Below, one piece after another: positions 1,793 through 30,454 of a DNA stretch of 32,000 nucleotides. The position numbers were made by a program, and so were the translations under genes. The stretch lies in NCBI RefSeq assembly GCF_000299365.1, contig NC_018655.1:900001-932000 (forward strand), written 5' to 3'. Source of the DNA: Candidatus Nitrosopumilus koreensis AR1 (GTDB lineage Archaea > Thermoproteota > Nitrososphaeria > Nitrososphaerales > Nitrosopumilaceae). A model generated the notes under the pieces. That model saw only the letters and a program-made list of their open reading frames with translations. It ran no database searches and was not told the DNA's origin. Each line of letters opens with the position of its first letter. The first letter of the stretch is position 1.

Positions 1793-2215
1793 ATGAAGCA
1801 AAAGGCACAAACAAGAAACATCAAGATTCTAGTTGCAAAATTAGGCCTTGATGGACATGATAGAGGAGCACTTGTTTTGTGTAGAGCATTTAGAGATGCA
1901 GGAATGGAAGTAATCTATTCAGGACTATTTGCAACACCAGAGCGAGTAGCACAGATTGCAGAAGACGAAGATGTTGATGCAATTGCAATGAGTTTGCTAA
2001 ATGGTGCACATGGAACACTATTTCCAAGAGTGGTCAAAGCCCTCAAAAAGAAAAAGATTAACGATGTGTTAGTTGTGGGAGGAGGAGTAATTCCAGAAAT
2101 TGATCATAAAGATTTGATTAAAGCAGGAGTTGACCATGTATTTGGACCAGGAACACCACTACCTACAATAATTAACCACATCAATACTGGGGTAGCAAAA
2201 TTAAGAAAAATATAA
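1793..2215 (+). CDS. Methylmalonyl-CoA mutase, cobalamin-binding small subunit (B12-binding Rossmann domain)
   Basis: 140-aa ORF. KILVAKLGLDGHDRGA carries the DxHxxG lower-ligand motif, followed by MSLLNGAH (SxL) and VVGGGVIP (GG). Size and motifs are typical of the stand-alone archaeal MCM alpha C-terminal subunit. Confidence 0.85.
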   Translation: MKQKAQTRNIKILVAKLGLDGHDRGALVLCRAFRDAGMEVIYSGLFATPERVAQIAEDEDVDAIAMSLLNGAHGTLFPRVVKALKKKKINDVLVVGGGVIPEIDHKDLIKAGVDHVFGPGTPLPTIINHINTGVAKLRKI

Positions 2216-18724: not shown

Positions 18725-18977
18725 CAGGAACATAAAATGTTGCAGAAATTACATCTCCAACACCTGCATCACAATCTGTTACAACAACAGAATGACCCAA
18801 AACAGACTCTCCAACACAGCCAAAATCAGTAACAGCGATGACTGACACATCCTCAGTAACTAGTGTTGGAACAATATTCCAAGGAGTGAGTGTGAAAACT
18901 AGTATTACTGAAGTTGCTGCAGCCAAAATTAGCATGAATTTTAGCCGTGGTGTTTTTTCGTGAGTTGTTTGTTGCAT
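18663..18977 (-). CDS. Small membrane-anchored or secreted protein (104 aa), function unknown
   Basis: An N-terminal basic stretch is followed by a hydrophobic helix (PRLKFMLILAAATSVILVFTL). A GAGGAG Shine-Dalgarno-like element lies just upstream of the ATG. A TTATATTT TATA-like box sits at 19006-19013 and a TTGGCACTAGA box at 19033-19043. Confidence 0.5.
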   Translation of the reverse strand: MQQTTHEKTPRLKFMLILAAATSVILVFTLTPWNIVPTLVTEDVSVIAVTDFGCVGESVLGHSVVVTDCDAGVGDVISATFYVPAMDQNGYYDRIEDKLAMVDP

Positions 18978-19048
18978 ATCTCCTCACTCTAGTTTAGAGT
19001 TTACAAAATATAAGCAAGAGGTAATTTTTTCATCTAGTGCCAACTAAT

Positions 19049-19055
19049 AAAAAAA
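19049..19055 (-). terminator. Oligo-T tract (T7 on the minus strand) immediately after the glycosylase stop codon
   Basis: A7 on the plus strand directly abuts the TAA at 19056-19058. Archaeal RNA polymerase terminates at oligo-T tracts (established knowledge). Confidence 0.35.
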
Positions 19056-19385
19056 TTAGATTTTACAATGGCATTTTTTTTGTTTTAAGATTCGGATTTG
19101 TTTGTTGAGAGAATCAACAAACGTATCTTGTACAGATAGTCCCGTAGCTTTTCTTTTATCAAGAGGACTATGATGCAAATATCCACGGTGAATCATCTCA
19201 GCGACTAAAGCATTATGCCTGAAATAAAGAGCTTTTAATTTTCCCTTCCAACGAATTGTTTCAGGATGCATCGAATATCCTTTTTTGTGTTCAGTTACCA
19301 CTGTCCATATTGCATGTAGTTCTCGGTGTTCACCTAACAAATGATTTTTACACAGTTTTTCTGGAGTGATGTCCCAAATTCTCAT
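19056..19385 (-). CDS. Pyrimidine-dimer DNA glycosylase-like protein (T4 endonuclease V / Pyr_excise family, short form)
   Basis: 109 aa. MRIWDITPEKLCKNHLLGEHRELHAIW aligns with T4 endoV LADQHLMAEYRELPRVF, including the catalytic Glu position. The downstream blocks GYSMHPETIRW and EMIHRGY match what I recall of the bacterial/archaeal members. Confidence 0.6.
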   Translation of the reverse strand: MRIWDITPEKLCKNHLLGEHRELHAIWTVVTEHKKGYSMHPETIRWKGKLKALYFRHNALVAEMIHRGYLHHSPLDKRKATGLSVQDTFVDSLNKQIRILKQKKCHCKI

Positions 19386-19614
19386 TTTATCAACTCGCTA
19401 AATGATACTTGTTTACAAACAACAACTTGACCATATCCCATAATGGAAAAATAATTTTTGGCATATTTAATAAAAAACAAAATCCAAAACTAGTGATAAA
19501 AAATAAAAAAGCTTTAGCTAATTTTGAAAAATTTACGCATAAAAAATTAGTTCAGTCTAATTAGTTTCATCTAATTTTCGAGTCGTTTAATAGAATCAGA
19601 AACTAAATTAGTCT

Positions 19615-19899
19615 ATGAATGCATGGAGTAAGTTTTGGAAATGGTATGAAGATAAAATTCTTGGAAGCATAATCATAATTGCAATTATTCAATTTATTCA
19701 AATCCCACATATGGTATGGAATGCAGATATTATGTTAGAAGCGGGTTTTGTCTCAAGAGTGCACCCCGTAATTGATTGGTTTTTGTACGGAGTAGATTTG
19801 ATTGAGATAATATCAATTGTCAATGTTGGCATGATCATGTTTAGCCTAATTAAAAAAAGACAGGCATCAAAAAAACGTGTAGAATTAAATCAAGTATAA
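19615..19899 (+). CDS. Small integral membrane protein (94 aa, two predicted TM helices), function unknown
   Basis: Hydrophobic segments are ILGSIIIIAIIQFIQI and LIEIISIVNVGMIMFSLI, with a basic C-terminal tail. A TTTAATAGA TATA-like box lies ~29 nt before the ATG. Confidence 0.5.
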   Translation: MNAWSKFWKWYEDKILGSIIIIAIIQFIQIPHMVWNADIMLEAGFVSRVHPVIDWFLYGVDLIEIISIVNVGMIMFSLIKKRQASKKRVELNQV

Positions 19900-19900
19900 A

Positions 19901-20728
19901 CTATTTTTCCTTACCTTGCCAGATGACTCTTTGTGGGAATGGTATCTCTATTCCAGCCTTATCTAGAGCAAGCTTGGCATGTTTGAGCAAAATAGGTTGT
20001 ACTTCACTCCAATCCTCACGTGGATGCCACACCAAAATGGTGATATTCACACTAGAATCAGCTAATGCTTCAATTCGGAACTCAGGTTTGGGAACTTGTA
20101 ATACAAAGGGCATGAAATCTCGAATTTCGTTTTCAATTTCACGAATTGCATGTTCTATTTTTTCGGAATATGCAATTCCAACAGTTACCTCTGCACGTCT
20201 CACAAGCGAGGAAGTCAATGTACGAATGTTGGATGTGAAAAATTTTTCGTTCGGAATTCGCATTAGAGTTCCATCAAATTTCCTCACCCGACTAGAAAAA
20301 GTAGAAATATCAACCAAAGTTCCAGAAATCCCCATATCAGGCAATTCAATAGTATCACCTTGTTTGGCAGGTTTTTCCATCAGTAAAAATATTCCAGATA
20401 TCAAGTTTGAAACCACCGATTGTGTTGCAAATCCTATAACAACTGCAAAAATTCCACCTGCAACCAATAGTCCAGATAAATCAAGTCCTGTAGAGGAGGT
20501 AAAAATCAAAAATGAGAGGATGATTATTCCATAGTAAATTAATTTACCAATATTTTTTGCAGAATCTTGAGTAAGAGATGAAGCATAATATTTGTTAAAC
20601 AAAAGACGAATGGTTCGAGCAACAATGAAACCAACTGCCATAATAATACCTCCAACAAATAATGAAAGAATTGTCAACCCACCAATAAGTTCCATTTCAG
20701 ATAGGCTATCAAAAAATTCCAAAACCAT
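19901..20728 (-). CDS. Small-conductance mechanosensitive channel (MscS family)
   Basis: 275 aa with three N-terminal TM helices, then the MscS beta-domain signature GDTIELPDMGISGTLVDISTFSSRVRKFDGTLMRIPNEKF. Its ATG overlaps the stop of the upstream ORF as TAATG (20726-20730). Confidence 0.85.
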   Translation of the reverse strand: MVLEFFDSLSEMELIGGLTILSLFVGGIIMAVGFIVARTIRLLFNKYYASSLTQDSAKNIGKLIYYGIIILSFLIFTSSTGLDLSGLLVAGGIFAVVIGFATQSVVSNLISGIFLLMEKPAKQGDTIELPDMGISGTLVDISTFSSRVRKFDGTLMRIPNEKFFTSNIRTLTSSLVRRAEVTVGIAYSEKIEHAIREIENEIRDFMPFVLQVPKPEFRIEALADSSVNITILVWHPREDWSEVQPILLKHAKLALDKAGIEIPFPQRVIWQGKEK

Positions 20729-21327
20729 TAGTCTAGTCCCATCTCCATATGTGTTTTAGTAGTTGTAAATTCCCAAGTGGGGGATTGAGTCCACGTAGTT
20801 TCAATCTGTTCTTTATTGACACCAATTATATCAGTACGTCCTCGTTTTTTCAAAACTGCAACCAAACCATCAAAAATTGCTTGCCTTTCATCATAATAAA
20901 TAGAATTATCGGTAATTGGAAAAATAATTTTTCCAAGAGAGTGACTCATACCTAATTCATTTTTTATCAAAATTTTCATTATGCCATTTACATAAGGGGT
21001 TGAATCTTCATGAGAGTCAACAATTTGGGTGTTAAAGTATTTACACAAGATTCCAGTGTCAGGAGATCCATACAACCCAAAACGAGAGTTAGTAGGATTA
21101 CAAGTAAACCAATCAAGGGAGTCTTTTTGATGATCAGTGATAATGAAAAGGCCAATTTCTATAGGACATTGAACAAAGACAGTGGCAGCAGAGTTTTCAG
21201 GAAGGAAAATATCCTTATCAAACTGCAAAAATACGTGTCTAGTTCTTCTTGCAGGATGGTTTAGAGGCCTTATTGGAGATATCTCAATTTTCAAAGTTTT
21301 TGAGGTTACAGGGATAATTTTTTTCAA
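20728..21327 (-). CDS. Conserved-looking archaeal hypothetical protein, C-terminal 199-aa reading frame (possibly DUF432-like; low confidence on family)
   Basis: The ORF starts at a TTG and is translationally coupled to mscS. It overlaps ORF 21284..21484 in the +1 relation at an A7 tract (see findings). Confidence 0.55.
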   Translation of the reverse strand: MKKIIPVTSKTLKIEISPIRPLNHPARRTRHVFLQFDKDIFLPENSAATVFVQCPIEIGLFIITDHQKDSLDWFTCNPTNSRFGLYGSPDTGILCKYFNTQIVDSHEDSTPYVNGIMKILIKNELGMSHSLGKIIFPITDNSIYYDERQAIFDGLVAVLKKRGRTDIIGVNKEQIETTWTQSPTWEFTTTKTHMEMGLD

Positions 21328-21484
21328 TATGTTTTCCTTCAGAGTTTACTCGGTCATAAGAGAATACCTTTGGGGAAACTTTTTCAAACTTTATTTCAGT
21401 GTCAGGAAAGATCAAAGATAAACTATCAGATATTTCATAAATACCATATTTTGAAAATCCGTCAGTATTTTGAATTTCAGTCAT
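21284..21484 (-). CDS. 66-aa ORF, a candidate N-terminal part of the 20728..21327 protein separated by a frameshift
   Basis: ATG start with coding-like composition. The frame ends 44 nt inside the downstream ORF. The two frames would join if one A of the A7 run (21318-21324) were removed. Confidence 0.35.
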   Translation of the reverse strand: MTEIQNTDGFSKYGIYEISDSLSLIFPDTEIKFEKVSPKVFSYDRVNSEGKHIEKNYPCNLKNFEN

Positions 21485-21562
21485 CTTTTCATTTTTTTAT
21501 GTCAAATCCAGAATTTATGCTCTCTTATTTAGATAGATCAGAGAATAATCTTCAAAATATTT

Positions 21563-21570
21563 AAAAAAAA
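21563..21570 (-). terminator. Oligo-T tract (T8 on the minus strand) 15 nt after the stop of the 297-aa secreted-protein gene
   Basis: A8 on the plus strand at 21563-21570, with the stop TGA at 21586-21588. Confidence 0.35.
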
Positions 21571-21585
21571 GTAGAAAGTGATAAC

Positions 21586-22479
21586 TCACTCTAGATTTAG
21601 AGGAATATTTGCAGTGCCAAAGTTTTCATTAATTCTAAACACATATTCTTTTGAAGAATCATATTCAAACTCGGTTCCTCCATATCCAATGTTTGGCCCA
21701 AAGAGAATGTTAAATTCTCTTGCATCACCAGGATTCAGTACAATTTGCCCGCTGGTAAAGTCCATACCAGAATATTTGAATGCCTTTGAACCATCCCATA
21801 CATCATATGCACATATTTGAGGACTAGTGCAATTTAGAGCAGCGATTTCAGAACTTGTGTTTTCAGCAAGCATGCGAATTGACAACAAAGGTTGTCCAGT
21901 AGAAGTAATCTCAAATTCATTTCCATTAGAACCAATTCCAGTCCAATAATATGTGATTGGTCCTAAATCAAATTTTTGAGCATTGGATGTGTATTCATAT
22001 ATTTTGATAGCTTGTTTGAGAGGTTTTTCGCAATCTAGTCTTTTGTAGGCTTTGGCAATTTCAGCACATTTTTCAAGTTCAGCTTCTAGTGCGGCTAATT
22101 TTGAATCAACGTTTTTTGGTTCTTCAGATACTATTTGTGAGGATTCAGATGGTACTGAAATCAATCCAAATGCAATCAAATGTTGGATGCCATTAACAAA
22201 CTCACCATCAGATATGACCCCATCTGCCCACCAGCCTGCATTGTTCTTAACCCAGTCCGGTACACCTTCTGCAGATTCAGAAGACACTGCAGTAGCAGGA
22301 ACGGTAATTATTCCCTCAGAAATTAAAAATGAGATTCCCGTAAGAAATTCAGATTCAGATATGACCCCATCTGCCCACCAGCCTGCATTGTTCTTAACCC
22401 AGTCCGGTACCTCAGCATACGCATAGGTAGTCGTTGCAATCAGCATAATTGCAGTTAGTGCAGTTATCGTGGTTTTCAT
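21586..22479 (-). CDS. Secreted protein (297 aa) with a signal peptide, two N-terminal WVKNNAGWW modules, a coiled linker and a Cys-containing C-terminal domain of unknown function
   Basis: Signal peptide MKTTITALTAIMLIATTTYAYA|EV. VPDWVKNNAGWWADGVIS(E/D).EF..GI..LI..G(I/L)I.VP occurs twice, 49 residues apart. TATA TTATATAC (22501-22508, minus strand) lies 29 nt before the ATG. Confidence 0.75.
   Translation of the reverse strand: MKTTITALTAIMLIATTTYAYAEVPDWVKNNAGWWADGVISESEFLTGISFLISEGIITVPATAVSSESAEGVPDWVKNNAGWWADGVISDGEFVNGIQHLIAFGLISVPSESSQIVSEEPKNVDSKLAALEAELEKCAEIAKAYKRLDCEKPLKQAIKIYEYTSNAQKFDLGPITYYWTGIGSNGNEFEITSTGQPLLSIRMLAENTSSEIAALNCTSPQICAYDVWDGSKAFKYSGMDFTSGQIVLNPGDAREFNILFGPNIGYGGTEFEYDSSKEYVFRINENFGTANIPLNLE
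22208..22263. repeat. 56-bp perfect direct repeat, copy A (partner 22355..22410)
   Basis: TCAGATATGACCCCATCTGCCCACCAGCCTGCATTGTTCTTAACCCAGTCCGGTAC is identical in both copies with a 147-bp (49-codon) offset. It encodes VPDWVKNNAGWWADGVIS on the minus strand. Confidence 0.9.
22355..22410. repeat. 56-bp perfect direct repeat, copy B (partner 22208..22263)
   Basis: Compared base by base with copy A. The flanking bases differ on both sides. Confidence 0.9.
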
Positions 22480-22508
22480 TAACGTAAATTTGCTTTCATT
22501 GTATATAA

Positions 22509-22519
22509 GCTAGTGGCAA
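22509..22519 (-). promoter_or_regulatory. TTRNCACTAG box (TTGCCACTAGC on the minus strand), proximal copy abutting the TATA box of gene 21586..22479
   Basis: It lies directly adjacent to TTATATAC (22501-22508). Start-to-start spacing from the 22528-22538 box is 19 nt. Confidence 0.45.
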
Positions 22520-22527
22520 ATAATTTT

Positions 22528-22538
22528 TCTAGTGCTAA
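22528..22538 (-). promoter_or_regulatory. TTRNCACTAG box (TTAGCACTAGA on the minus strand), distal copy
   Basis: It lies 19 nt upstream of the TATA box at 22501-22508. The 11-mer is identical to the boxes at 29213 and 30172. Confidence 0.5.
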
Positions 22539-22561
22539 ATTATGAAAGTTAAGACATTAAG

Positions 22562-22572
22562 ACTAGTGGCAA
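22562..22572 (-). promoter_or_regulatory. TTRNCACTAG box (TTGCCACTAGT on the minus strand), third copy in the 22480-22623 spacer
   Basis: It lies 34 nt upstream of the 22528 box. Its palindromic ACTAGT core is 21 nt upstream of the TTTAAATT TATA-like box (22594-22601) of the divergent DUF1722 gene. Confidence 0.4.
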
Positions 22573-22623
22573 TTATGTTTCAGGTTGTTCTTCTTTAAAT
22601 TCAAACAAAATCGATTTTTTTAG

Positions 22624-23163
22624 ATGACTAAAAAAAATATTGCAAGCACATCAAGATTATCTGAGCAAGAAATCACAGAATACATCCTAGATAGATTCAA
22701 AGACGTAAAACAAGGAAAAATCAAAGACCTCGTTTCATTTCAAGCCATGAACAAATACATGATTATGGCACACAGTCAAATCGAATTAAAAATTTTGGGA
22801 AATATTGTGGCCAGTTATAAGAAAACATCATTATCAGATATAATGTCAGAATATGAAAAGCACCTAAAAATTGCTTTAGAAAAACAACCAACTACTAAAT
22901 CACATTATAATGTAATAATGCATATTTTTGGACATTTTTCAAAAAACTTTAGCCAAACAGAAAAAGAGCAATTTTTTAAATTGTTTTACAGATTTAGAGA
23001 GGGAGAAATAACCATAGGTGAAATTTTGTCTGAGATAAATCAAATTATTTTTCGATTCAACAACACATATCTTGCAAACCAAACATATTTTCTCCTATAT
23101 TCAGATCAACAGACAAGAAATTTGTTTCACATATTATCACAAATGAATCTAGAAAAAATCTGA
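22624..23163 (+). CDS. DUF1722 (YbgA-family) domain protein
   Basis: 179 aa. NKYMIMAHSQIELKILGNIVA ... SHYNVIMHIFGHFSKNFSQTEKEQFFKLFYRFREGEITIGEIL ... YLANQTYF follows the DUF1722 pattern as I recall it (HK.LLMAHS...LG.LVA ... H.NVL.H..GYFK..L...EK.EL...I..YR.G ... YL..Q.YL). Confidence 0.6.
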   Translation: MTKKNIASTSRLSEQEITEYILDRFKDVKQGKIKDLVSFQAMNKYMIMAHSQIELKILGNIVASYKKTSLSDIMSEYEKHLKIALEKQPTTKSHYNVIMHIFGHFSKNFSQTEKEQFFKLFYRFREGEITIGEILSEINQIIFRFNNTYLANQTYFLLYSDQQTRNLFHILSQMNLEKI

Positions 23164-24306
23164 AAGTGGTTTTTGCCGCATTAATTTTGATATATTTCCA
23201 TGAGATAGCCATTCAGATTTACTAATACTCATTTTTTCTGAGGCTAAAATCAAAGCATGTTCAAAATCATTTGCAGTAACAGGAGTTTGTTTCATCGCTT
23301 CTCGAATACCCTCCCTTACCTGCCAAACACCTACAGGAATAGCATATTCAGGCCGAATTTCTCTTAAAATGACCACACCAGATTGAATTCCATTCTCATG
23401 AAGATACTCCAGAACTCCTAATTTTGCAGCAAAATAGGCTCCTGCGATAGCAGGAGGATGATCAATTCCCCTAGCATCTTCATAGTCAGAACCAAACCCG
23501 AGAATTCCATTAGAATACCAAGCTTCAATCATTTCATAGATCCACCTATGAGGAAATAAAACAACAGAGAAATGATTTCCAAGATGAGTATAAGAAAAAA
23601 CCTTACAAGAATCAATTAATCCATAATCCAAAACTTCATCAGCAAGAGATTTTGAAATGATGTCATCAGTGGCAGTTATACTCCATTTGGTTGGAACCAG
23701 TTTTCGTTTTTGTCCAAGCATTCCAATGCTAAAACATTTTTGAATCTTTGAAATGTCAATTCCAGAATTATACAAATTCAAAACTGCATCTTGTGCATTC
23801 AAGTCTTTATCATAAAATGTCTTTTCAATTGATCTTACAGAAGTAGTTCCAGAAAATTTTGCAGATTTTATTTCACCAATAGGTCCAAAAGGAGCACTTT
23901 CACCATCTAGAGAGATGTTAGAAGATACAGATTTTTGGAAAATTAGATCAGAGCCAGTAGGTTTTGAAGACATTGTAACTTCTTGAAGACTTTCAATGTA
24001 ACGTCCATCAGTTTTATCAATAGACATTTTTTGTGTTCCACGAACTAAATTCAATCTAAAGTTTACAATTTCTTCTAAAGATTTTCCTATCCATTTTTCA
24101 GGATTGTCAAGAAGGCTTGTATCACCATGGATTGGAGGAACCATCGGACCAACAAAGACTTTGGGATAATTGTATGATCCTACAAATACAGAAGGGGGAC
24201 TAGTTCCACTAATAGAATCAGAGGAAAATAAGTTGCCATATTTTGATAATGATTCATGCCACTTTGCCAAGATAGAACGACGAATATCCTGAGAATTAGA
24301 AGACAT
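23149..24306 (-). CDS. Nre-family archaeal DNA-repair-associated protein (DUF650/DUF651, NreA-like)
   Basis: 385 aa. The blocks SPPSVFVGSYNYPKVFVGPMVPP, LVPTKWSITATDD and AIPVGVWQVREGIREA match the conserved Nre N- and C-terminal regions as I remember them. The 3' end overlaps the convergent DUF1722 gene by 15 nt. Confidence 0.55.
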   Translation of the reverse strand: MSSNSQDIRRSILAKWHESLSKYGNLFSSDSISGTSPPSVFVGSYNYPKVFVGPMVPPIHGDTSLLDNPEKWIGKSLEEIVNFRLNLVRGTQKMSIDKTDGRYIESLQEVTMSSKPTGSDLIFQKSVSSNISLDGESAPFGPIGEIKSAKFSGTTSVRSIEKTFYDKDLNAQDAVLNLYNSGIDISKIQKCFSIGMLGQKRKLVPTKWSITATDDIISKSLADEVLDYGLIDSCKVFSYTHLGNHFSVVLFPHRWIYEMIEAWYSNGILGFGSDYEDARGIDHPPAIAGAYFAAKLGVLEYLHENGIQSGVVILREIRPEYAIPVGVWQVREGIREAMKQTPVTANDFEHALILASEKMSISKSEWLSHGNISKLMRQKPLSDFF

Positions 24307-24375
24307 TGAAATTGGTGCTCAATCTGTGCCTAATAACTTGACTAATGATGTTAGTTGACGGAAGGTTAACACCGT

Positions 24376-24477
24376 TTATTCGGGATCTTCAGACTCTCTT
24401 TCACGTCCACATTGAGGACAAACAGTTTGGTTTTGCCATAACTCCTTACCACAATTCCTACAAGACTGAGGTTTCAT
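24376..24477 (-). CDS. Small zinc-ribbon protein (33 aa), below the ORF-track cutoff, upstream of the Nre gene
   Basis: Own codon-by-codon translation: MKPQSCRNCGKELWQNQTVCPQCGRERESEDPE, with a CxxC-x10-CxxC pattern. Its ATG is ~27 nt from the centre of the TATA element at 24499-24508. No obvious promoter lies in the 69-nt gap before the Nre ATG. Confidence 0.45.
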   Translation of the reverse strand: MKPQSCRNCGKELWQNQTVCPQCGRERESEDPE

Positions 24478-24498
24478 ATAGAAGATACAACAAGATTG

Positions 24499-24508
24499 AA
24501 TTTAAAAA
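24499..24508. promoter_or_regulatory. Single quasi-symmetric TATA element (AATTTAAAAA) equidistant from two divergent start codons
   Basis: The centre at ~24503.5 is 26.5 nt from the minus-strand ATG at 24477 and 27.5 nt from the plus-strand ATG at 24531. Confidence 0.4.
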
Positions 24509-24530
24509 CTTCTACATATCTAAAAAGTTG

Positions 24531-25454
24531 ATGGCAATAAATAGAATAGTTTCTTTCTTGCCTAGTGCAACAGAGTTACTATATGAGTTTGGGGTTCAAG
24601 ATAAACTGTTTGGAGTCACACATGAATGTAAATTTCCACATGAAGCTATTTTCAAACCACAAATAATTGACACTGTAATAGATTCTGAAAAACTATCCAG
24701 TGATGAAATCAACACACAAACATGTCAATTACTAAAAAATGGAAAAGATATTTTTGTGTTAAATGAAAAAAATCTGCTAAAAGCAAATCCAGACATGATT
24801 ATTTCACAAGAAACTTGCGAAGTTTGTGCAGCATATAATAACCAAGTAAACAAAGCATTGCAGATTCTCGAAAACAAGCCCATAATCTACTCAATGGATC
24901 CACACAACATACAAGAAATCATAGAATCAGTTACAAAGTTAGGGATGATTTTAGAAAAGGAATCTAGAGCAAAAGAGATTACAGATTTACTTGAAAAAAG
25001 AATTTTGAGTATAAAAAATAAACAAACTAAAAACAAACCACGAGTACTTGCAATTGAGTGGTTAGAACCATTTTTTACCGCAGGTCATTGGGTTCCAGAA
25101 ATGGTCCAAATTGCAGGAGGGGTGAATCTAATAAGCAAGACAGGTGAACATTCAAGACGTATGGAATTTCAAGAGATATTAGATTCAGACCCAGACATTA
25201 TTGTTTTAATGCCATGTGGGTTTGATGTAAAACGTACAATTTCTGAGTTTGAAATCATGTTGAGAGAGAACAAAGCATGGAATAGTCTCAGAGCAGTAAA
25301 AAACAAAAGAGTTTTTGCAGTAGATGCAAATTCATTTTTTAGCAAACCCAGTATCAGAACAATTGAGGGGGTTGAGATATTAGCAAAAATTTTTCATCCA
25401 GAAATATACGATGATGTAAAAATTCCAAAAACATTCCAAAATATCAAAATTTGA
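24531..25454 (+). CDS. Periplasmic-binding-protein type 2 fold protein (BtuF/FhuD-like corrinoid or iron-complex binding protein) without a signal peptide
   Basis: MAINRIVSFLPSATELLYEFGVQDKLFGVTHEC is the typical N-terminal strand-helix of the Peripla_BP_2 family, with ANPDMII and DPDIIVLMPCG blocks. The internal ATG at 24531 is preferred over the track start at 24345. The first 62 codons overlap the antisense zinc-ribbon ORF, and the TATA box lies at -27 of 24531. Confidence 0.7.
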   Translation: MAINRIVSFLPSATELLYEFGVQDKLFGVTHECKFPHEAIFKPQIIDTVIDSEKLSSDEINTQTCQLLKNGKDIFVLNEKNLLKANPDMIISQETCEVCAAYNNQVNKALQILENKPIIYSMDPHNIQEIIESVTKLGMILEKESRAKEITDLLEKRILSIKNKQTKNKPRVLAIEWLEPFFTAGHWVPEMVQIAGGVNLISKTGEHSRRMEFQEILDSDPDIIVLMPCGFDVKRTISEFEIMLRENKAWNSLRAVKNKRVFAVDANSFFSKPSIRTIEGVEILAKIFHPEIYDDVKIPKTFQNIKI

Positions 25455-25457
25455 TTA

Positions 25458-27569
25458 TTATTTCAAATTTTGTTCTGCAGATGCAGATGCCACAGGAGTA
25501 GCATTAACTGGATCAACTGTTACTTTTACGGTATCAGTATCTTGTCTGCCGTTATTATCAAATACCTTTAACTCAAACACTAGAACCTTAATTTCACCAT
25601 TTGCAACTGTAGGAGTAGTAAATATAGGAGTAACACTAGACTTTGAGGACAGCGTCACTGCCTCACCTGCTATTTGAGTCCAAGAATATGATAAAGGTTG
25701 GTTTTCAGGATCATGGCTACCACGTCCATCAAGAGAGACTTGGATTTTTTCATTTACTATCATATCATTGCCAGCATCAGCAACAATATCCAGATTAAGA
25801 GTATTCCTTACAGTCAAAGTAAGACTATCAGAAGCACTGAGAGTACCATCACTAACAGTACAAGTCAAGATAATTTTAGAATCACCTACAACATTTGGAG
25901 TTTTCACTAAAGTATTTCCACTTGAAGGTTCAGTGAAAACAACATTAGATGAAGAAGACCAAGAAAATGTGAGTGCGTCACCATCAGGATCAGTTCCACT
26001 ACACATTATGTTTACCAAAGTATTTTCATCAACAGTTCTATCATCACTTACAGTTGCTGTAGGTGCACTGTTTTCAGGAGATACAAACACTACAACCTGA
26101 TCAAAAGCTTTTTGATCAGCAGTGTCAGTAACTGTTAGTTGGAAAGACAAACGTTTGGATTCAGAAGGCATTACTTCAGGAGCAACAAAGCTTAGAGTTT
26201 TACCAGATTTATCAAAAGTCACAAGGTCTCCAGACAATTGTTTCCATGAGAAGGTTAGAGGATCACCGTCTGCATCAGAACCAGAGCCAATTATAGTAAC
26301 AGGGCTACCACTTACAACACGTCTGTCAGGACCAGCTGAAGCATTTGGAGGAGAATTCCTGTTAGTGACGACAATGTTTACATCATCAGAATCAGAATTA
26401 CCATGAACATCAGTTACAGTAAGCTCAAAGACTAAAGTTTCAGAGTCAGAACTAATTTGAGGAGAGAAGAAATAGATCGAAAATGATGCTCTTTCATAGA
26501 ATTTCACCACAGGTCCAGATTTTTGGCTCCAAGAATATCTTATGCTATCACCATCAGGATCAGTTCCAGTTCCCAATAATTTTACAAGAACATTTTCAGG
26601 TACGTTTTGATTAGGTCCTGCATCAGCAATTGGGGAACCATTGGAAGGAAGTACTTTAACCATTGCCAAAGCATTTGCATATCCGTTTCCAGGTGAATAA
26701 CCAGTTACTTGGAAGGAAAGTAGTTTTTCAGTGTCTCCAACTTGAGGTGCAATAAATTCTACTTCGGGACCAATAAAAGAGCTAATAGATGCAGAAGGTC
26801 CTAACAACTGAACCCAAGAAAATCTAATGTCTGATCCATCTACTGTTTGGCCTGTAGCAGTGAGAGTCACCCTTTCACCTTCATAAACAGTTTGCAGGGG
26901 TCCAGCATCAACAGTGATTCGTCTGTTGTCAATAAGATTTGAAAACAAGTACACATTTACACTATCTGTTGCAGTACCACCAAATCCGTCATCAACAGTT
27001 ACTTGAAATGACAAAGGTTCAAAATCAGAAAAATCAAGATAAATGGGCTGGAATGTAATATGTTTATTGTCGGTGTATACAAGTTCTACTTCTTGTCCAC
27101 CAGTTTGTTTCCACTGATAAGTTAGTACATCACCATCAGGATCATGTGCTGAAGGAAAGATACTCATTACATGAACACCAGGCAATGCAACTTTATCACG
27201 TCCAGCATCAACTTGAGGTGCATGGTTTACAGGATTAACAACTACTTCAACAATATCAGAATGACTTGCCCCAATAGGGTCAGTAACTGTCAATTCAAAA
27301 GTTAAAACCTTAATTTCACCATTTGCAACTGTAGGAGCCATAAATGTGGGTTCAGGAATAGAATAAGAAGAAAGAACTACAGGTTCGCCATAGATTTGAA
27401 CCCATTTAAAGACAAGTTTATCATGATCAGCATCAAATCCTTCGCCAAGTAAGGTCACCATCTTATTTTCAACAACATCAATAGATTCTATCTGTTGAGC
27501 AAATGAATCAGAAACTCCAATTACAACAAACAAAGATAATACTAAAGGTAATAGAAAAAAACCATTCAT
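25458..27569 (-). CDS. Secreted protein (703 aa) built from seven PKD/Ig-like (KIAA0319-type PKD) repeats
   Basis: Signal peptide MNGFFLLPLVLSLFVVIGVSDSFA|QQ. The repeating ~95-aa unit is DAG.D..V.....V.L.G.GSDPDGD.L.(Y/F)SW.Q..G..V.......L.F.AP.V.....L.F.LTVTD..G....D.V.V.V. Confidence 0.8.
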   Translation of the reverse strand: MNGFFLLPLVLSLFVVIGVSDSFAQQIESIDVVENKMVTLLGEGFDADHDKLVFKWVQIYGEPVVLSSYSIPEPTFMAPTVANGEIKVLTFELTVTDPIGASHSDIVEVVVNPVNHAPQVDAGRDKVALPGVHVMSIFPSAHDPDGDVLTYQWKQTGGQEVELVYTDNKHITFQPIYLDFSDFEPLSFQVTVDDGFGGTATDSVNVYLFSNLIDNRRITVDAGPLQTVYEGERVTLTATGQTVDGSDIRFSWVQLLGPSASISSFIGPEVEFIAPQVGDTEKLLSFQVTGYSPGNGYANALAMVKVLPSNGSPIADAGPNQNVPENVLVKLLGTGTDPDGDSIRYSWSQKSGPVVKFYERASFSIYFFSPQISSDSETLVFELTVTDVHGNSDSDDVNIVVTNRNSPPNASAGPDRRVVSGSPVTIIGSGSDADGDPLTFSWKQLSGDLVTFDKSGKTLSFVAPEVMPSESKRLSFQLTVTDTADQKAFDQVVVFVSPENSAPTATVSDDRTVDENTLVNIMCSGTDPDGDALTFSWSSSSNVVFTEPSSGNTLVKTPNVVGDSKIILTCTVSDGTLSASDSLTLTVRNTLNLDIVADAGNDMIVNEKIQVSLDGRGSHDPENQPLSYSWTQIAGEAVTLSSKSSVTPIFTTPTVANGEIKVLVFELKVFDNNGRQDTDTVKVTVDPVNATPVASASAEQNLK
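25500..27491 (-). repeat. Seven tandem ~95-aa PKD/Ig-like domain repeats (protein level)
   Basis: Read from the translation. The first and last units share a 32-bp perfect DNA match (25584-25615 and 27306-27337, AACCTTAATTTCACCATTTGCAACTGTAGGAG) encoding PTVANGEIKVL. Confidence 0.75.
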
Positions 27570-27693
27570 TATAAATTAGTTATCGTTATCATATAAAACC
27601 ATGATCGTGGAAATTCAACGAAAGTATATTATGTACTAGAAACATGGCTCAGATTTTTTTAAACAATGTTTAACGCGTTAAAAGAATACAAAA

Positions 27694-29073
27694 TTAGATA
27701 GGTTTTCCCCTATATTGATAATCAATGACTTTGTGAAATAAATTGTGAGAGGCAATCACAGTTAGCATTACCGCAATCATTCCAATAAAATTTCTTACCA
27801 TTACCAATTCGTTTAAAGTATTTTCAATGTTTGGGATTTCAAAAAACACATAGTAACTGTCAATCATCCAGAATACCAAAGTTACCCACGACGAGAATCC
27901 GGCAATCAAGTAACCTAAACGAGTTTTATTATGAATTAGAATTATTGAAGAAAATATCGCAATATACCAAAACGAAGAGCCCATTAGCCATAAAGGCTGA
28001 TAAACATCAGATCTATTATCCAGCCAATAGTAGCTTGAACCAACAACAGCTAATGTAAAAAGAGAAACTTGAATTAGCATTTGGTTTATTTTGAAACCTG
28101 TTTTTTCTTCTTTTTGTTCCATTTCAGGAGGATCTAATTCCATCTCTTTTGTTGCAATATCAATTGCTTCATGAACGGACTTTAGACGCACAGGTATGAT
28201 TTTTTTTATTGAATCATCAGTTACAACAGTATCATGAACTAAACTATCAATCAAAGGTCTTGCAAGCGATGCTTTGACAGGAGTAATAAGATCAACCCAG
28301 TAAGAAGACAACCTAGTTGTTAAAAATGGAATATGCAGTACAAACAGATTTTTGTTGATATATGTTGAATACACACGCATTAATTCTTCATAAGTCATTT
28401 TGTCAGGCCCTCCTATCTCAAAGATCTTTCCTACTGTTTCAGGTTTTGAAAGAGATTCAGCCAAATAGTAAATCACATCATCTACTGCAATTGGTTGAGC
28501 TAACGATTTTACCCAAGAAGGGCACACCATAATTCTTAATCTTTCAACAAGATAACGAAGCATCGCATATGAACCACCCTTTGCACCAATAATTATAGAA
28601 GCCCTAAACTCAGTTACAGGAATATTTCCGGATGCAAGTATTTCTCCAACCTCCTTTCTACTACGCATGTGTGGAGAAAGTTCTAAACTATCATTTACTA
28701 ATCCACCAAGGTAAATAATTCTCTTAACTCCCGATTCCGTTGCAGATCTAAGAAAGTTTTGAGCTTGAATTTTTTCTCTTGTAACAAATTCTAGCCAATT
28801 ACCTTTATCACCTTCCATTGAATGAAGTAAATAAAATGCAGTATCAATTCCAGACATTGCATTTTTTAATTCATCAAATTTGAAAACATCTGCCTGAACA
28901 TATTTTATTTTTTCACTATCAGGTAATTGTTTTCTAGTTAATCCTTTTACAGAATATCCTAAAGAAGACAATAATGAAATCAATCTAGAGCCAATAAAAC
29001 CAGTTGCCCCCGTAACTAATATGGAGAAAGGCCTGGAACTATATGCATTATTTATTGAAAGTGTTTCTTTCAT
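27694..29073 (-). CDS. NAD(P)-binding NmrA/atypical-SDR-like domain fused to a C-terminal multi-pass membrane domain
   Basis: 459 aa. ILVTGATGFIGSRL forms the TGxxGxxG Rossmann motif. Residues ~330-445 contain four hydrophobic helices (LIQVSLFTLAVVGSSYYWL, LWLMGSSFWYIAIFSSIILI, YLIAGFSSWVTLVFWMI, FIGMIAVMLTVIASHNLF). Confidence 0.75.
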   Translation of the reverse strand: MKETLSINNAYSSRPFSILVTGATGFIGSRLISLLSSLGYSVKGLTRKQLPDSEKIKYVQADVFKFDELKNAMSGIDTAFYLLHSMEGDKGNWLEFVTREKIQAQNFLRSATESGVKRIIYLGGLVNDSLELSPHMRSRKEVGEILASGNIPVTEFRASIIIGAKGGSYAMLRYLVERLRIMVCPSWVKSLAQPIAVDDVIYYLAESLSKPETVGKIFEIGGPDKMTYEELMRVYSTYINKNLFVLHIPFLTTRLSSYWVDLITPVKASLARPLIDSLVHDTVVTDDSIKKIIPVRLKSVHEAIDIATKEMELDPPEMEQKEEKTGFKINQMLIQVSLFTLAVVGSSYYWLDNRSDVYQPLWLMGSSFWYIAIFSSIILIHNKTRLGYLIAGFSSWVTLVFWMIDSYYVFFEIPNIENTLNELVMVRNFIGMIAVMLTVIASHNLFHKVIDYQYRGKPI

Positions 29074-29119
29074 TCATTCATACACCAACAGATGTTTTTT
29101 TTTTGTTTGAGACTATTTA

Positions 29120-29130
29120 ACTAGTGATAA
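29120..29130 (-). promoter_or_regulatory. TTRNCACTAG box (TTATCACTAGT on the minus strand), proximal copy abutting TAAATAG of gene 27694..29073
   Basis: It lies adjacent to the TATA-like TAAATAG (29113-29119, minus strand). Start-to-start spacing from the 29139 box is 19 nt. Confidence 0.45.
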
Positions 29131-29138
29131 TAATAAAT

Positions 29139-29149
29139 TCTAGTGATAA
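29139..29149 (-). promoter_or_regulatory. TTRNCACTAG box (TTATCACTAGA on the minus strand), distal copy
   Basis: It lies 19 nt upstream of the TAAATAG element. Confidence 0.5.
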
Positions 29150-29212
29150 ATCAATGAGATTTTTTCTTAATTTAGGAACAAATTTGAAGCATGTTTCTCT
29201 AAAAGTGAAATA

Positions 29213-29223
29213 TTAGCACTAGA
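29213..29223 (+). promoter_or_regulatory. TTRNCACTAG box (TTAGCACTAGA), distal copy upstream of the B12-photoreceptor-like gene
   Basis: It lies 18 nt upstream of TTATATAAT (29242-29250), which is 27 nt before the ATG at 29269. Confidence 0.5.
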
Positions 29224-29231
29224 AATTTGGG

Positions 29232-29242
29232 TTAGCATTAGT
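29232..29242 (+). promoter_or_regulatory. Degenerate box (TTAGCATTAGT, one mismatch), proximal copy abutting the TATA box of gene 29269..30111
   Basis: It starts exactly 19 nt after the 29213 box. This is the same tandem geometry as the pairs 22528/22509 and 29139/29120. Confidence 0.35.
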
Positions 29243-29268
29243 TATATAATATAGCATTAAAAAAAAGC

Positions 29269-30111
29269 ATGGTCTACATACGAGCTAAAAAGGTCAAATC
29301 AGATCAGTATCTGTATTTAGTCAAAAGCGTATGGGATTCAAAAAAAAGTACATCAAAACAAGAAATCATAAAATATCTAGGAAAGGCATCTGAGGTCGTT
29401 AAAGATGACATTCCAATAGATTATAGAAACGACCCTAAGGTGTTATCAGTTTTAGCATCTTACAATCCAAAAGATATCAAAAAAAGAGAGGACGCAACAA
29501 AAAAATCAAAACAGCAATTATACAAAAAATTAACAGAAGGAAATATTCAAGACTCGATAAAAATTTATGAAGAATATACAAAAATATTCAACATACCAGA
29601 TTTTTTTGACAGAATTTTAAAACCAATAATGTGTAGGATTGGAGACGAGTGGGAAACAGGGAAAATCAGCATAGCAACTGAGCATGTTGCAAGTAACGTT
29701 GCACAAACACTAGTAAAAATAATCATGGAACAAGTTACAGGTTCTGCAAGCAAGAAAAAAATTCTCATTTGTGTTCCAATAGGTGAAGAGCATCATCTTG
29801 GGTGTGATGTTTTAGAAACATACCTGTCCATAAAAGGATTCAAAATATACAATATGAGAACTTCAATGCCAACTGAATCAATACTGGGTTTTATAGATAA
29901 CAACAATCCAGACGTGGTCTTAGTGTCAATTACATTGGAAGATAATCTTTTAGCAGGACAAAGACTAGTTAAAAAAATCAAGGACCATGCAGATATACCA
30001 GTATTAATCGGAGGATATGCACTGCAAGCAAGGAAAATTCCAAAGTTTTTAGGAGATGTGATTCCAGATTGTGGTCTTGAAGAACTTCCAAAAATTTTAA
30101 GAAGAAACTAA
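29269..30111 (+). CDS. Cobalamin-binding CarH/LitR-like photoreceptor-type protein with a non-MerR N-terminal domain (putative B12/light-responsive regulator)
   Basis: 280 aa. The helical cap carries W128-x9-E138-H139 (GDEWETGKISIATEHV). The Rossmann B12 domain has E173-x-H175-x-x-G178 (IGEEHHLG), SITL (SxL) and IGGYA (GG). The N-terminus YIRAKKVKSDQYLYLVKSVWDSKKSTSKQEIIKYLGK is basic and beta-rich, with no HTH recognised. Confidence 0.75.
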   Translation: MVYIRAKKVKSDQYLYLVKSVWDSKKSTSKQEIIKYLGKASEVVKDDIPIDYRNDPKVLSVLASYNPKDIKKREDATKKSKQQLYKKLTEGNIQDSIKIYEEYTKIFNIPDFFDRILKPIMCRIGDEWETGKISIATEHVASNVAQTLVKIIMEQVTGSASKKKILICVPIGEEHHLGCDVLETYLSIKGFKIYNMRTSMPTESILGFIDNNNPDVVLVSITLEDNLLAGQRLVKKIKDHADIPVLIGGYALQARKIPKFLGDVIPDCGLEELPKILRRN

Positions 30112-30171
30112 CATTGCTTTTATTTAGAATCATAGTCACGAAGACTTGTTTATCACGATTTTATGGAAAAA

Positions 30172-30182
30172 TTAGCACTAGA
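30172..30182 (+). promoter_or_regulatory. TTRNCACTAG box (TTAGCACTAGA) upstream of the 60-aa zinc-ribbon gene
   Basis: The 11-mer is identical to 29213-29223. It lies ~17 nt upstream of TTTAAATA (30200-30207). A GGAGGAG Shine-Dalgarno-like element at 30259-30265 is 8 nt before the ATG. Confidence 0.5.
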
Positions 30183-30271
30183 TAAAATAATTATTTTGTT
30201 TTAAATAATTTTGAACATCAATTTATTCATAGTATGTGTTTTGATATCAAAAAAAGTCGGAGGAGAAATTA

Positions 30272-30454
30272 ATGGGTAGAACGTGTAGAGGTATTTGCGA
30301 AATGCACAAAGCAGAACCTGCACCAAATAAAATCAGATATGAAATAGGTCAGAAAAGGTGCACGTTTTGTGGAATATTCTTAGCAATAAACGATCCAAGA
30401 TGTATTTGTTGCAAAGCTGTATTGAGAACAAATCCAAGAAGTAAGAAAAGATGA
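30272..30454 (+). CDS. Small Cys-rich zinc-ribbon protein (60 aa) with a basic C-terminal tail
   Basis: MGRTCRGICEMHKA...KRCTFCGIFL...RCICCKAVLRTNPRSKKR has seven Cys, including CxxC and CxCC pairs. It is preceded by a strong GGAGG element. Confidence 0.6.
   Translation: MGRTCRGICEMHKAEPAPNKIRYEIGQKRCTFCGIFLAINDPRCICCKAVLRTNPRSKKR

Follow-up and report, generated by a model that had tools for sequence, protein, structure and literature searches.

We analysed a 32,000-nucleotide (nt) stretch of the genome of Candidatus Nitrosopumilus koreensis AR1 (contig NC_018655.1, positions 900,001 to 932,000 of the forward strand; hereafter, the window, whose own positions are used throughout), in which a short element, here called the box, recurs upstream of TATA-like elements. 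The box is an asymmetric 10-mer with the consensus TTAGCACTAG. It accompanies the gene for a 280-amino acid (aa) protein with a CarH-type vitamin B12 module (hereafter, the B12 protein), which is the candidate regulator, and the genes for a pyrimidine-dimer DNA glycosylase, a fusion of a short-chain dehydrogenase/reductase (SDR) with a membrane domain, a secreted protein designated WVK, a 104-aa membrane protein and a 60-aa zinc-ribbon protein. Box-linked gene families were obtained by clustering the open reading frames (ORFs) that start 20–75 nt downstream of intergenic boxes. Boxes were scored with a position matrix, which was derived from 14-mers taken at two fixed positions ahead of the B12 gene in 76 related loci and thus built by position to guard against circularity. 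In the following list, exact matches are to the pattern TTRNCACTAG, TATA elements were assigned by reading the sequence, uORF is an upstream ORF, and BRE is the recognition element of transcription factor B (TFB).

18663–18977, minus strand: gene for the 104-aa membrane protein, box-linked (ORF; no Pfam family; box-linked in 22 loci)
19006–19014, minus strand: TATA-like element CTTATATTT of the 104-aa gene promoter
19034–19043, minus strand: box TTGGCACTAG, single and of the distal type, 104-aa gene promoter (exact match; matrix score 18.2)
19056–19385, minus strand: pyrimidine-dimer DNA glycosylase gene, box-linked (Pfam Pyr_excise, E = 4e-26)
19382–19441, minus strand: uORF MGYGQVVVCKQVSFSELIK of 19 codons (from translation; its TGA stop overlaps the glycosylase ATG as ATGA)
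19463–19470, minus strand: TATA-like element TTAAATAT of the uORF/glycosylase promoter
19490–19499, minus strand: single box TTATCACTAG, uORF/glycosylase promoter (exact match; matrix score 12.4)
21586–22479, minus strand: WVK gene, for a 297-aa secreted protein that repeats a VPDWVKNNAGWWADG motif and belongs to no known family (ORF, Pfam)
22502–22509, minus strand: TATA element CTTATATA of the WVK promoter
22510–22519, minus strand: proximal box TTGCCACTAG, WVK promoter, abutting the TATA element (exact match; matrix score 12.1)
22529–22538, minus strand: distal box TTAGCACTAG, WVK promoter, 19 nt upstream of the proximal box (exact match; score 17.2)
22563–22572, minus strand: third box TTGCCACTAG of the WVK/DUF1722 spacer (exact match; probably part of the DUF1722 promoter, inverted)
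22594–22601, plus strand: TATA-like element TTTAAATT of the DUF1722 gene promoter
22624–23163, plus strand: DUF1722 gene, divergent from WVK and a possible extra target (Pfam DUF1722, E = 7e-34)
27694–29073, minus strand: NAD(P)-binding SDR/NmrA-like and membrane domain fusion (Pfam NAD_binding_10, Epimerase, NmrA)
29113–29120, minus strand: TATA-like element TTAAATAG of the SDR-membrane promoter
29121–29130, minus strand: proximal box TTATCACTAG, SDR-membrane promoter, abutting the TATA element (exact match; matrix score 13.4)
29140–29149, minus strand: distal box TTATCACTAG, SDR-membrane promoter (exact match; matrix score 11.2)
29213–29222, plus strand: distal box TTAGCACTAG of the regulator's own promoter (exact match; score 17.5; kept in orthologous loci)
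29232–29241, plus strand: proximal box TTAGCATTAG of the regulator's own promoter, at the BRE position (matrix score 18.3)
29242–29249, plus strand: TATA box TTATATAA, 27 nt before the regulator ATG
29269–30111, plus strand: candidate regulator gene, 280 aa (N-terminal beta-sheet domain 1–40, helical linker, CarH-type B12 module approximately 85–280)
30172–30181, plus strand: single box TTAGCACTAG, zinc-ribbon promoter (exact match; score 19.1; orthologous promoters carry the box)
30200–30208, plus strand: TATA-like element TTTAAATAA of the zinc-ribbon gene promoter
30272–30454, plus strand: 60-aa zinc-ribbon gene, box-linked (ORF; box-linked in 7–9 loci)

A reading made from the sequence alone (hereafter, the sequence-only reading) had reported nine exact copies of TTRNCACTAG in the window, each of which was recovered where, and on the strand on which, it had been placed. 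The expectation from 100 dinucleotide-preserving shuffles of the window (G+C content 33–39%) was 0.32, with no more than two matches in any shuffle, in line with the rough estimate of below one given in that reading. Of the 25 occurrences of CACTAG (7.6 expected), these nine alone are preceded by TTRN. All nine lie in intergenic DNA, as had been claimed; the box at 19490 falls inside a mechanically called 51-aa ORF on the opposite strand, which was not accepted as a gene. The position-derived matrix refined the motif to TT[AG][GC]CA[CT]TA[GT], in which the final G is frequently T and C7 is frequently T, while the 11th base that had been counted as part of the box is not conserved. Scanning the window with this matrix returned the nine exact sites together with 29232–29241, a tenth, full-strength site that had been described as a copy with one mismatch and that completes the third tandem pair. 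When reread site by site on their own strands, the three pairs proposed earlier (22529/22510, 29140/29121 and 29213/29232) are spaced by exactly 19 nt start-to-start, and the proximal copy of each abuts its TATA element. At the three promoters with one box, 17–20 nt separate it from the TATA element downstream. No matrix match scoring at least 8 was found in the window scan near the housekeeping promoters that had been named as lacking the box.

For the comparative analysis, 80 loci of up to 21 kb, one genome per species, were fetched via a 12-orthologue alignment of the B12 protein; these span Nitrosopumilus, Nitrosarchaeum, Nitrosotenuis and Nitrososphaeraceae. The exact pattern occurred 466 times in 1.27 Mb of related loci, compared with approximately 13 expected at the window-shuffle rate, an approximately 37-fold excess. 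Only 22 of the 475 exact matches in the 80 loci and the window lay inside ORFs, although the greedy ORF set covers 81% of the DNA, and matrix matches scoring at least 12 were 34 times as dense in non-coding DNA (2.04 per kb) as in coding DNA (0.059 per kb; 1.3 Mb of related loci). Successive matches on the same strand were 18 or 19 base pairs (bp) apart in 153 cases, with all other spacings of up to 80 bp totalling approximately 50. The distance from the 3′ end of the box to the start codon showed sharp peaks at 47–48 nt for distal boxes and at 28–30 nt for proximal boxes, which abut the TATA element, and a TTAAATA-type signal starts 29 nt after the box start. The information content is at background outside the 10 bp of the box, so that the box is not part of a longer repeat. 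A dispersed repeat or miniature mobile element was rejected, since the flanks vary between orthologous loci while the position of the box is fixed, and a transcribed RNA element was rejected because the boxes lie upstream of TATA.

Box-linked genes recur as the same families from locus to locus:

B12 protein: box-linked in 77 loci
Secreted WVK protein: box-linked in 59 loci
448-aa flavin amine-oxidase/CrtI-HpnE-like oxidoreductase: box-linked in 45 loci
119-aa protein, function not known: box-linked in 39 loci
Full-length TFB paralogue (Pfam TFIIB): box-linked in 33–38 loci
SDR-membrane fusion: box-linked in 16–28 loci
Small zinc-ribbon proteins: several box-linked families
PNPOx-like protein: box-linked in 10 loci

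We also looked for a forward box in the 160 nt before each orthologue. The box was present at 97% of 79 B12 gene orthologues, 97% of 59 WVK orthologues, 93% of 42 oxidoreductase orthologues, 93% of 45 orthologues of the 119-aa gene and 21 of 21 orthologues of the 104-aa gene, in the last case mostly 54–56 nt from the start codon; the five control genes MscS, DUF432, Nre, GTPase and CysRS had it in 0% of orthologues within the same 160 nt. Thus, the three expectations of the sequence-only reading that bear on the reality of the element, namely, depletion from coding DNA, a fixed spacing to the TATA element and start codon, and conservation upstream of orthologues (93–100% in five box-linked families against 0% in five controls), were all borne out. 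On these results, both the cis element and the regulon that it defines are almost certainly genuine and conserved among ammonia-oxidizing archaea.

The promoter of the regulator gene itself has the best-conserved box pair of the set. In 73 of 76 loci, its distal box (TTAGCACTAG or TTAGCACTAT) and its proximal box (mostly TTAGCATTAG) lie exactly 19 bp apart, and the proximal box, which ends 27–30 nt before the ATG in 74 of the 76, is directly followed by TTATATA or TTAAATA, while the 9 nt between the boxes and the surrounding DNA vary freely, which constitutes a phylogenetic footprint. The box pair is also found in Nitrosotenuis (protein 49% identical) and in Nitrososphaeraceae (47%). In Ca. 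Nitrosocaldus, the regulator promoter reads TTGGCACTAG, 8 nt, TTAGCACTAT and then TTTATTTATAA, with a pair spacing of 18 bp. At that locus (L081, 5508–8293), the gene next upstream of the regulator is a Pyr_excise gene; the one next downstream, for a Pyr_redox_2 oxidoreductase, is preceded by a box pair of its own (TAGGCACTAG at 6924 and TTACCACTAT at 6941, spaced by 17 bp). Because the TATA element starts approximately 28 nt before the ATG and given the usual archaeal distance from TATA to the transcription start, the mRNAs from such promoters should be leaderless or nearly so. On this scale, the distal box would span approximately −57 to −48 and the proximal box, lying over the BRE, approximately −38 to −29. 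A Ca. Thermoplasmatota contig with 70% G+C (L084, 4940–5022) has CTAGTGCC and GTGCCTAA upstream of a gene for a 301-aa family member, with GTGCC cores 21 nt apart; the opposite strand reads GGCACTAG and TTAGGCAC, and the neighbouring genes encode a PAS histidine kinase and a response regulator. In this single case, the core of the box may have been kept, inverted, outside the ammonia oxidizers.

Two of the window promoters called for a closer reading. The sequence-only reading had tied the box at 19490–19499 to a joint glycosylase/uORF promoter. This box ends 48 nt before the uORF ATG at 19441, which is the canonical distance, and so the glycosylase transcript probably starts at the uORF and the glycosylase is probably translated by coupling; the promoter fits the general geometry if transcription and translation start at 19441, and otherwise it does not. 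In the WVK/DUF1722 spacer, the proximal and distal boxes end mostly 30 nt and 48–49 nt, respectively, before the WVK ATG across the loci. The third box (22563–22572) lies at a variable distance from the WVK ATG (71–99 nt), whereas its distance to the DUF1722 ATG clusters by clade at 54, 59–60 or 75–82 nt, with the box pointing away from DUF1722. The fixed distance is therefore to DUF1722, which may be a target through this inverted box, and the orientation of the box is thus not absolute.

Proximal boxes are unevenly distributed among the families. With a two-box promoter defined by a proximal box scoring at least 10, a proximal box was present at 62 of 66 regulator genes, 32 of 48 WVK genes, 8 of 12 SDR genes, 19 of 40 oxidoreductase genes and 10 of 22 104-aa genes. 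The genes for the TFB paralogue, which aligns over nearly the entire TFIIB model, and for the 119-aa protein are divergent, and their back-to-back single boxes are 43 bp apart start-to-start, approximately four helical turns; this spacing is exact in 30 loci (within L017–L067; e.g. L027, 13102 on the minus and 13145 on the plus strand).

The sequence-only reading had proposed the CarH-like gene product as the factor that binds the box. In the product of 29269–30111, which matches a protein of Ca. N. koreensis AR1 with 100% identity, Pfam recognizes B12-binding_2 (E = 1.4e-8) and B12-binding (E = 2.5e-10) after approximately 80 residues that belong to no family. The published signatures of CarH are Wx9EH, which contacts the upper axial adenosyl group and is called crucial for photoreceptor activity, and D/ExHx2G-x41-SxT/V-x22-27-GG (PMC9304148). 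The protein has both, the former as W128-x9-E138-H139 and the lower-ligand motif as E173-E-H175-H-L-G178, 41 residues, S220-I-T222, 25 residues and G248-G249. Among 34 family members (23–50% identity), H175 and the GG pair never vary, and W128, E138 and H139 hardly do. An AlphaFold2 model based on the alignment of these 34 sequences reached a mean predicted local distance difference test score (pLDDT) of 93.3; an earlier model from 12 close orthologues (pLDDT 58, with the N-terminal domain below 50) was unusable. Searching PDB sequences with phmmer returned photocobilin, methionine synthase and CarH chains. All 50 matches listed by Foldseek against the PDB were light-sensing B12 proteins, namely, photocobilin (8J2W), Thermus thermophilus CarH and a Chloracidobacterium MerR-family B12 domain, with a template modelling score of approximately 0.85 normalized to the T. 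thermophilus CarH B12 domain and E of approximately 1e-11. The best NCBIfam model was 'HTH-type transcriptional repressor CarH' (NF052513), the alignment to which begins at model position 81, past the DNA-binding domain, so that only the B12 module is aligned. Thus, the earlier proposal gains from the B12 signatures, from nearest structures that are all B12 photoreceptors and from a promoter with the most conserved box pair, but the protein is not a strict member of the CarH family, as it lacks a MerR domain and scores 56 bits where 400 are required.

The N-terminal domain is predicted to consist of three long antiparallel strands (2–9, 12–23 and 28–39; pLDDT above 90 in the AlphaFold2 model). 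Its net charge, taken over 42 residues, ranges from +3 to +10 across the family, and ten residues of the N-terminal region are invariant (R5, K7, Y14, Y16, V18, W22, Q31, Y36, G38 and P49). Profile searches of Pfam and of PDB sequences gave no match to this domain, and the Foldseek matches of the whole model were dominated by the B12 module; a structure search of BFVD gave only flavodoxin-like and response-regulator matches. A HMMER search of 1.84 billion representative proteins found only 123 relatives of the domain, nearly all of 280–300 residues and with the same architecture; named relatives came from Nitrosocaldus and one Thermoplasmatota genome. The domain may resemble the N-termini of some transposases and integrase arm-binding domains, a likeness that was taken as a lead only. 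A 287-aa paralogue (L058, 11968–12831, minus strand) has the same N-terminal beta-sheet domain and ExHxxG, lacks Wx9EH and has no box upstream; two further proteins (P0145 and P0166) resemble it. It is reminiscent of CarA, the B12-independent paralogue of CarH in Myxococcus.

On balance, we favour the explanation that the boxes are the operator of the 29269–30111 product, which would be an archaeal counterpart of CarH: an autoregulated, adenosylcobalamin (AdoCbl)-dependent dark repressor that is released by light. Judged from the sequence, the B12 protein is quite likely to be the cognate factor of the box, and light is a likely signal; on dark repression as the mode of action, we are evenly divided. 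From the features described above, we infer box binding, AdoCbl binding, light response and repression by this protein.

The known system offers a template for such a mechanism. CarH tetramers bind tandem direct repeats that overlap the core promoter and tolerate one good repeat combined with pseudo-repeats (PMC9304148), and the tetramers fall apart in light (PMC9304148; PMC4557120). In the archaeal counterpart, one beta-sheet domain, in place of the MerR domain of CarH, would read one asymmetric box. In the dark, the AdoCbl-bound protein would oligomerize head-to-tail, with the first domain on the distal box (approximately −57 to −48) and the next domain 17–19 bp downstream, on the proximal box or a pseudo-box (approximately −38 to −29). 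Occupancy of the proximal position would cover the BRE and the upstream edge of the TATA element, exclude TFB and the TATA-binding protein, and hence repress transcription. Light would break the Co–C bond, the oligomer would dissociate, and the regulon would be derepressed, including the regulator, the ultraviolet (UV)-dimer glycosylase, the SDR, the CrtI-like flavin adenine dinucleotide (FAD) oxidoreductase, the small membrane, secreted and zinc-ribbon proteins, and the TFB paralogue, which, being box-controlled, could drive a second tier of genes. The repressor model would account for the fixed orientation and spacing of the boxes, the proximal boxes and negative autoregulation. The gene content matches that of bacterial LitR/CarH light regulons, in which a short-chain dehydrogenase, an FAD oxidoreductase and DNA photorepair genes are found (PMC9758184). 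The model also fits the presence among the targets of the UV-dimer glycosylase, the SDR and the FAD oxidoreductase, the latter two of which have counterparts in light-inducible clusters of Pseudomonas under LitR control. More broadly, we regard as evenly poised the proposal that an AdoCbl photoreceptor transcription factor with a new beta-sheet DNA-binding domain, reading TTAGCACTAG boxes beside the BRE/TATA and setting a light/UV programme that includes an alternative TFB, is common to every order of ammonia-oxidizing archaea and perhaps to some Thermoplasmatota.

Several observations weigh against this interpretation. The NCBIfam CarH model scores only 56.1 bits against a cut-off of 400, and DNA binding by the N-terminal domain, which has no detectable relative of known function, is suggested by its position, charge and conservation only. 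In T. thermophilus CarH, the light-state bis-His linkage involves a His directly after the Trp, where the present protein has Glu (after Trp128). No photolyase gene was found among the box-linked genes within 10 kb of the regulator. The box at 22563–22572 appears to act in the inverted orientation, and every locus compared was anchored on the regulator gene. Finally, proximal scores are at background in four families whose promoters have a distal box only: a proximal box was present at none of the 29 promoters of the TFB paralogue, at none of the 32 of the 119-aa gene, and at 0 of 14 and 0 of 11 in the two families that encode 53-aa and 63-aa proteins.

The last of these observations leads to a serious rival, in which protein and box are unchanged but the box serves for upstream activation. 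Bound at −57 to −48, the protein would recruit TFB and the TATA-binding protein; single-box promoters would thereby be activated and two-box promoters repressed, with the proximal boxes providing negative feedback, and light would switch between two programmes through this dual-function regulator and not simply derepress. The rival is serious because the lone sites 17 nt upstream of TATA sit where archaeal activators act: those single-box promoters retain the rigid 47–48-nt distance and the fixed orientation, and archaeal activators bind just upstream of the BRE, as exemplified by the upstream activating sequence (UAS) of GvpE, a 20-nt element between divergent promoters (PMC2241852). However, the proximal boxes of the regulator gene and WVK stand at the BRE, the position of a repressor, and the TATA elements are near-consensus, not suggesting weak promoters. 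The uORF/glycosylase promoter is also single-box, so the promoter classes are not split by function. Repression remains viable at single-box promoters because CarH operators with one good repeat and pseudo-repeats are still repressed (PMC9304148). We consider the activator explanation unlikely, yet deserving of attention. The extended-BRE explanation, by which the box-linked TFB paralogue itself would read the box and define a class of alternative-TFB promoters, draws on the proximal boxes, which lie exactly at the BRE and abut TATA, and on the linkage of the paralogue to the box in 33–38 loci. It does not account for the distal copy, which is the most widespread and lies 17–19 nt upstream of TATA, beyond the reach of TFB, nor for the tandem direct repeats; in addition, the paralogue's own promoter lacks a proximal box, and the Nitrosocaldus locus has boxes but no such TFB gene nearby. 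A BRE for an alternative TFB was rejected on the position of the distal box, and this explanation is scarcely credible. In an attempt to derive a general thaumarchaeal BRE consensus, only 10, then 15, non-regulon promoters passed the filters.

The identity of the factor and of the signal can be questioned separately. Contact between the B12 protein and DNA is deduced, its N-terminal domain has no characterized relative, and the regulon holds other possible DNA binders (zinc ribbons, a 46-aa ribbon-helix-helix-like protein in 4 loci and the TFB paralogue), so that another transcription factor encoded elsewhere might bind the box, with the B12 protein as a target only or as a light-sensing partner that does not bind DNA. 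Nevertheless, of the box-linked genes, only the B12 gene occurs with a conserved double box in all four lineages covered (Nitrosopumilaceae, Nitrosotenuis, Nitrososphaeraceae and Nitrosocaldus). The basic and near-invariant N-terminal domain of its product sits in place of the CarH DNA-binding domain, with no other function in evidence, and the alternative candidates are patchy across loci; we hold this explanation to be distinctly improbable. A protein that binds the boxes but senses cobalamin supply and not light would be in keeping with a B12 domain as the ligand-binding module, with cobalamin synthesis by ammonia-oxidizing archaea and with the presence of a CarA-like paralogue without Wx9EH in some genomes. 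Against this, no gene for cobalamin synthesis or transport was box-linked, the Peripla_BP_2 gene at 24345–25454 included, Wx9EH is described as crucial for photoreceptor activity (PMC9304148), and the targets fit photoprotection and UV repair. Sensing of cobalamin supply is accordingly very improbable, and a light-released operator of the B12 protein remains the explanation that we favour.

The remaining genes of the window are housekeeping genes (MetRS, CysRS, KARI, SAHH, NadE and an Obg-like GTPase). The CysRS ORF (17264–18724, plus strand) and the convergent 104-aa gene overlap by 62 nt at their 3′ ends, and a Nre gene recognized by Pfam occupies 23149–24306. Two cobalamin-related genes have no box, encoding a 140-aa stand-alone B12-binding protein (1793–2215, plus strand) and the BtuF-like Peripla_BP_2 protein mentioned above (24345–25454, plus strand), and neither do a 2433-aa ORF (3991–11292, minus strand) and the gene for a 703-aa PKD/cadherin-like repeat protein (25458–27569, minus strand).

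Ammonia-oxidizing archaea are the dominant nitrifiers of the ocean and of many soils and a major source of cobalamin. Light inhibits them, and we know of no mechanism by which they sense it. The present analysis supplies a sensor candidate, a precise cis element and a list of target genes. If the proposed mechanism is true, it would be the first defined light-sensing transcription circuit in ammonia-oxidizing archaea, would extend B12-based photoreception to archaea, and would add to this photoreceptor class a new DNA-binding fold of potential use in green-light optogenetics. The element would also provide a rare example of an archaeal regulon, including an alternative TFB, that is defined by sequence across an entire class, and the box matrix can be used now for the annotation of this regulon in ammonia-oxidizing archaeal genomes and for the reading of diel metatranscriptomes.

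The closest known systems are CarH and LitR of T. thermophilus, Bacillus megaterium and Myxococcus xanthus, which share with the present regulator the order of DNA-binding domain, four-helix bundle and Rossmann B12 module. Likewise, their operator is a tandem direct repeat that overlaps the core promoter, the regulator's own gene is a target, and SDR, FAD-oxidoreductase and DNA-damage genes belong to the target set, as they do in the LitR clusters of Pseudomonas. In contrast, the archaeal protein has no MerR or helix-turn-helix match in Pfam, with three predicted beta strands at 2–39 instead of the MerR winged helix (RxWERRY), and its boxes are the 10-bp TTAGCACTAG spaced by 17–19 bp start-to-start, and not contiguous 11-bp nnnnTnnACAn repeats. 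The promoter context here is an archaeal BRE/TATA promoter, and no carotenoid pathway is evident. Thus, the regulator would work like CarH and LitR without being a member of that family: the MerR domain and the 11-bp operator are absent and the family score falls below its threshold, while the features of the B12 module are present.

Control of a second regulator by a light sensor also has counterparts. LitR controls the extracytoplasmic function (ECF) sigma factor LitS in Streptomyces, and a CarQ cascade operates in Myxococcus; in these systems, as proposed here, a light regulator stands over the gene for an alternative promoter-recognition factor in two tiers, but the second tier is hypothetical in the present case and would depend on a full-length TFB paralogue and not on a sigma factor. 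TFB3 of Sulfolobus acidocaldarius is a truncated TFB, unlike the paralogue described here, which is near full TFIIB length and has a defined cis element. The UV-inducible TFB3 is an alternative TFB tied to the radiation response (PMC6101591). The UAS of haloarchaeal GvpE is a short bipartite element beside the BRE of two close divergent promoters (PMC2241852), comparable to the back-to-back boxes, spaced by 43 bp, that separate the genes for the TFB paralogue and the 119-aa protein; GvpE is, however, an activator with an unrelated fold and motif, whereas many promoters described here also have a copy on the BRE. The position of upstream activating sites of the GvpE/Ptr2 type is matched by the single-box promoters, while the proximal boxes on the BRE argue for repression. 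The archaeal BRE is one element directly upstream of TATA; here, the distal box is the commonest and ends 17–19 nt upstream of TATA, and only the proximal box is at the BRE.

With respect to the sensor, photocobilin (8J2W/8J2X) and the Chloracidobacterium protein (8JBS) gave the top structural matches and combine the same light-sensing module with varied output domains. Unlike the present protein, these proteins and those of the SignatureFinder survey of B12 photoreceptors are bacterial, with biliverdin-binding, diguanylate cyclase or MerR outputs, and the survey makes no mention of archaea or of this N-terminal domain (PMC11796333). Full-text literature searching, whose coverage excludes most subscription papers, found no description of this motif or of a CarH/LitR-like regulator in ammonia-oxidizing archaea. 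Compared with all of these systems, the candidate B12 photoreceptor-regulator appears new in three respects: its putative DNA-binding domain, its operator and its archaeal promoter context.

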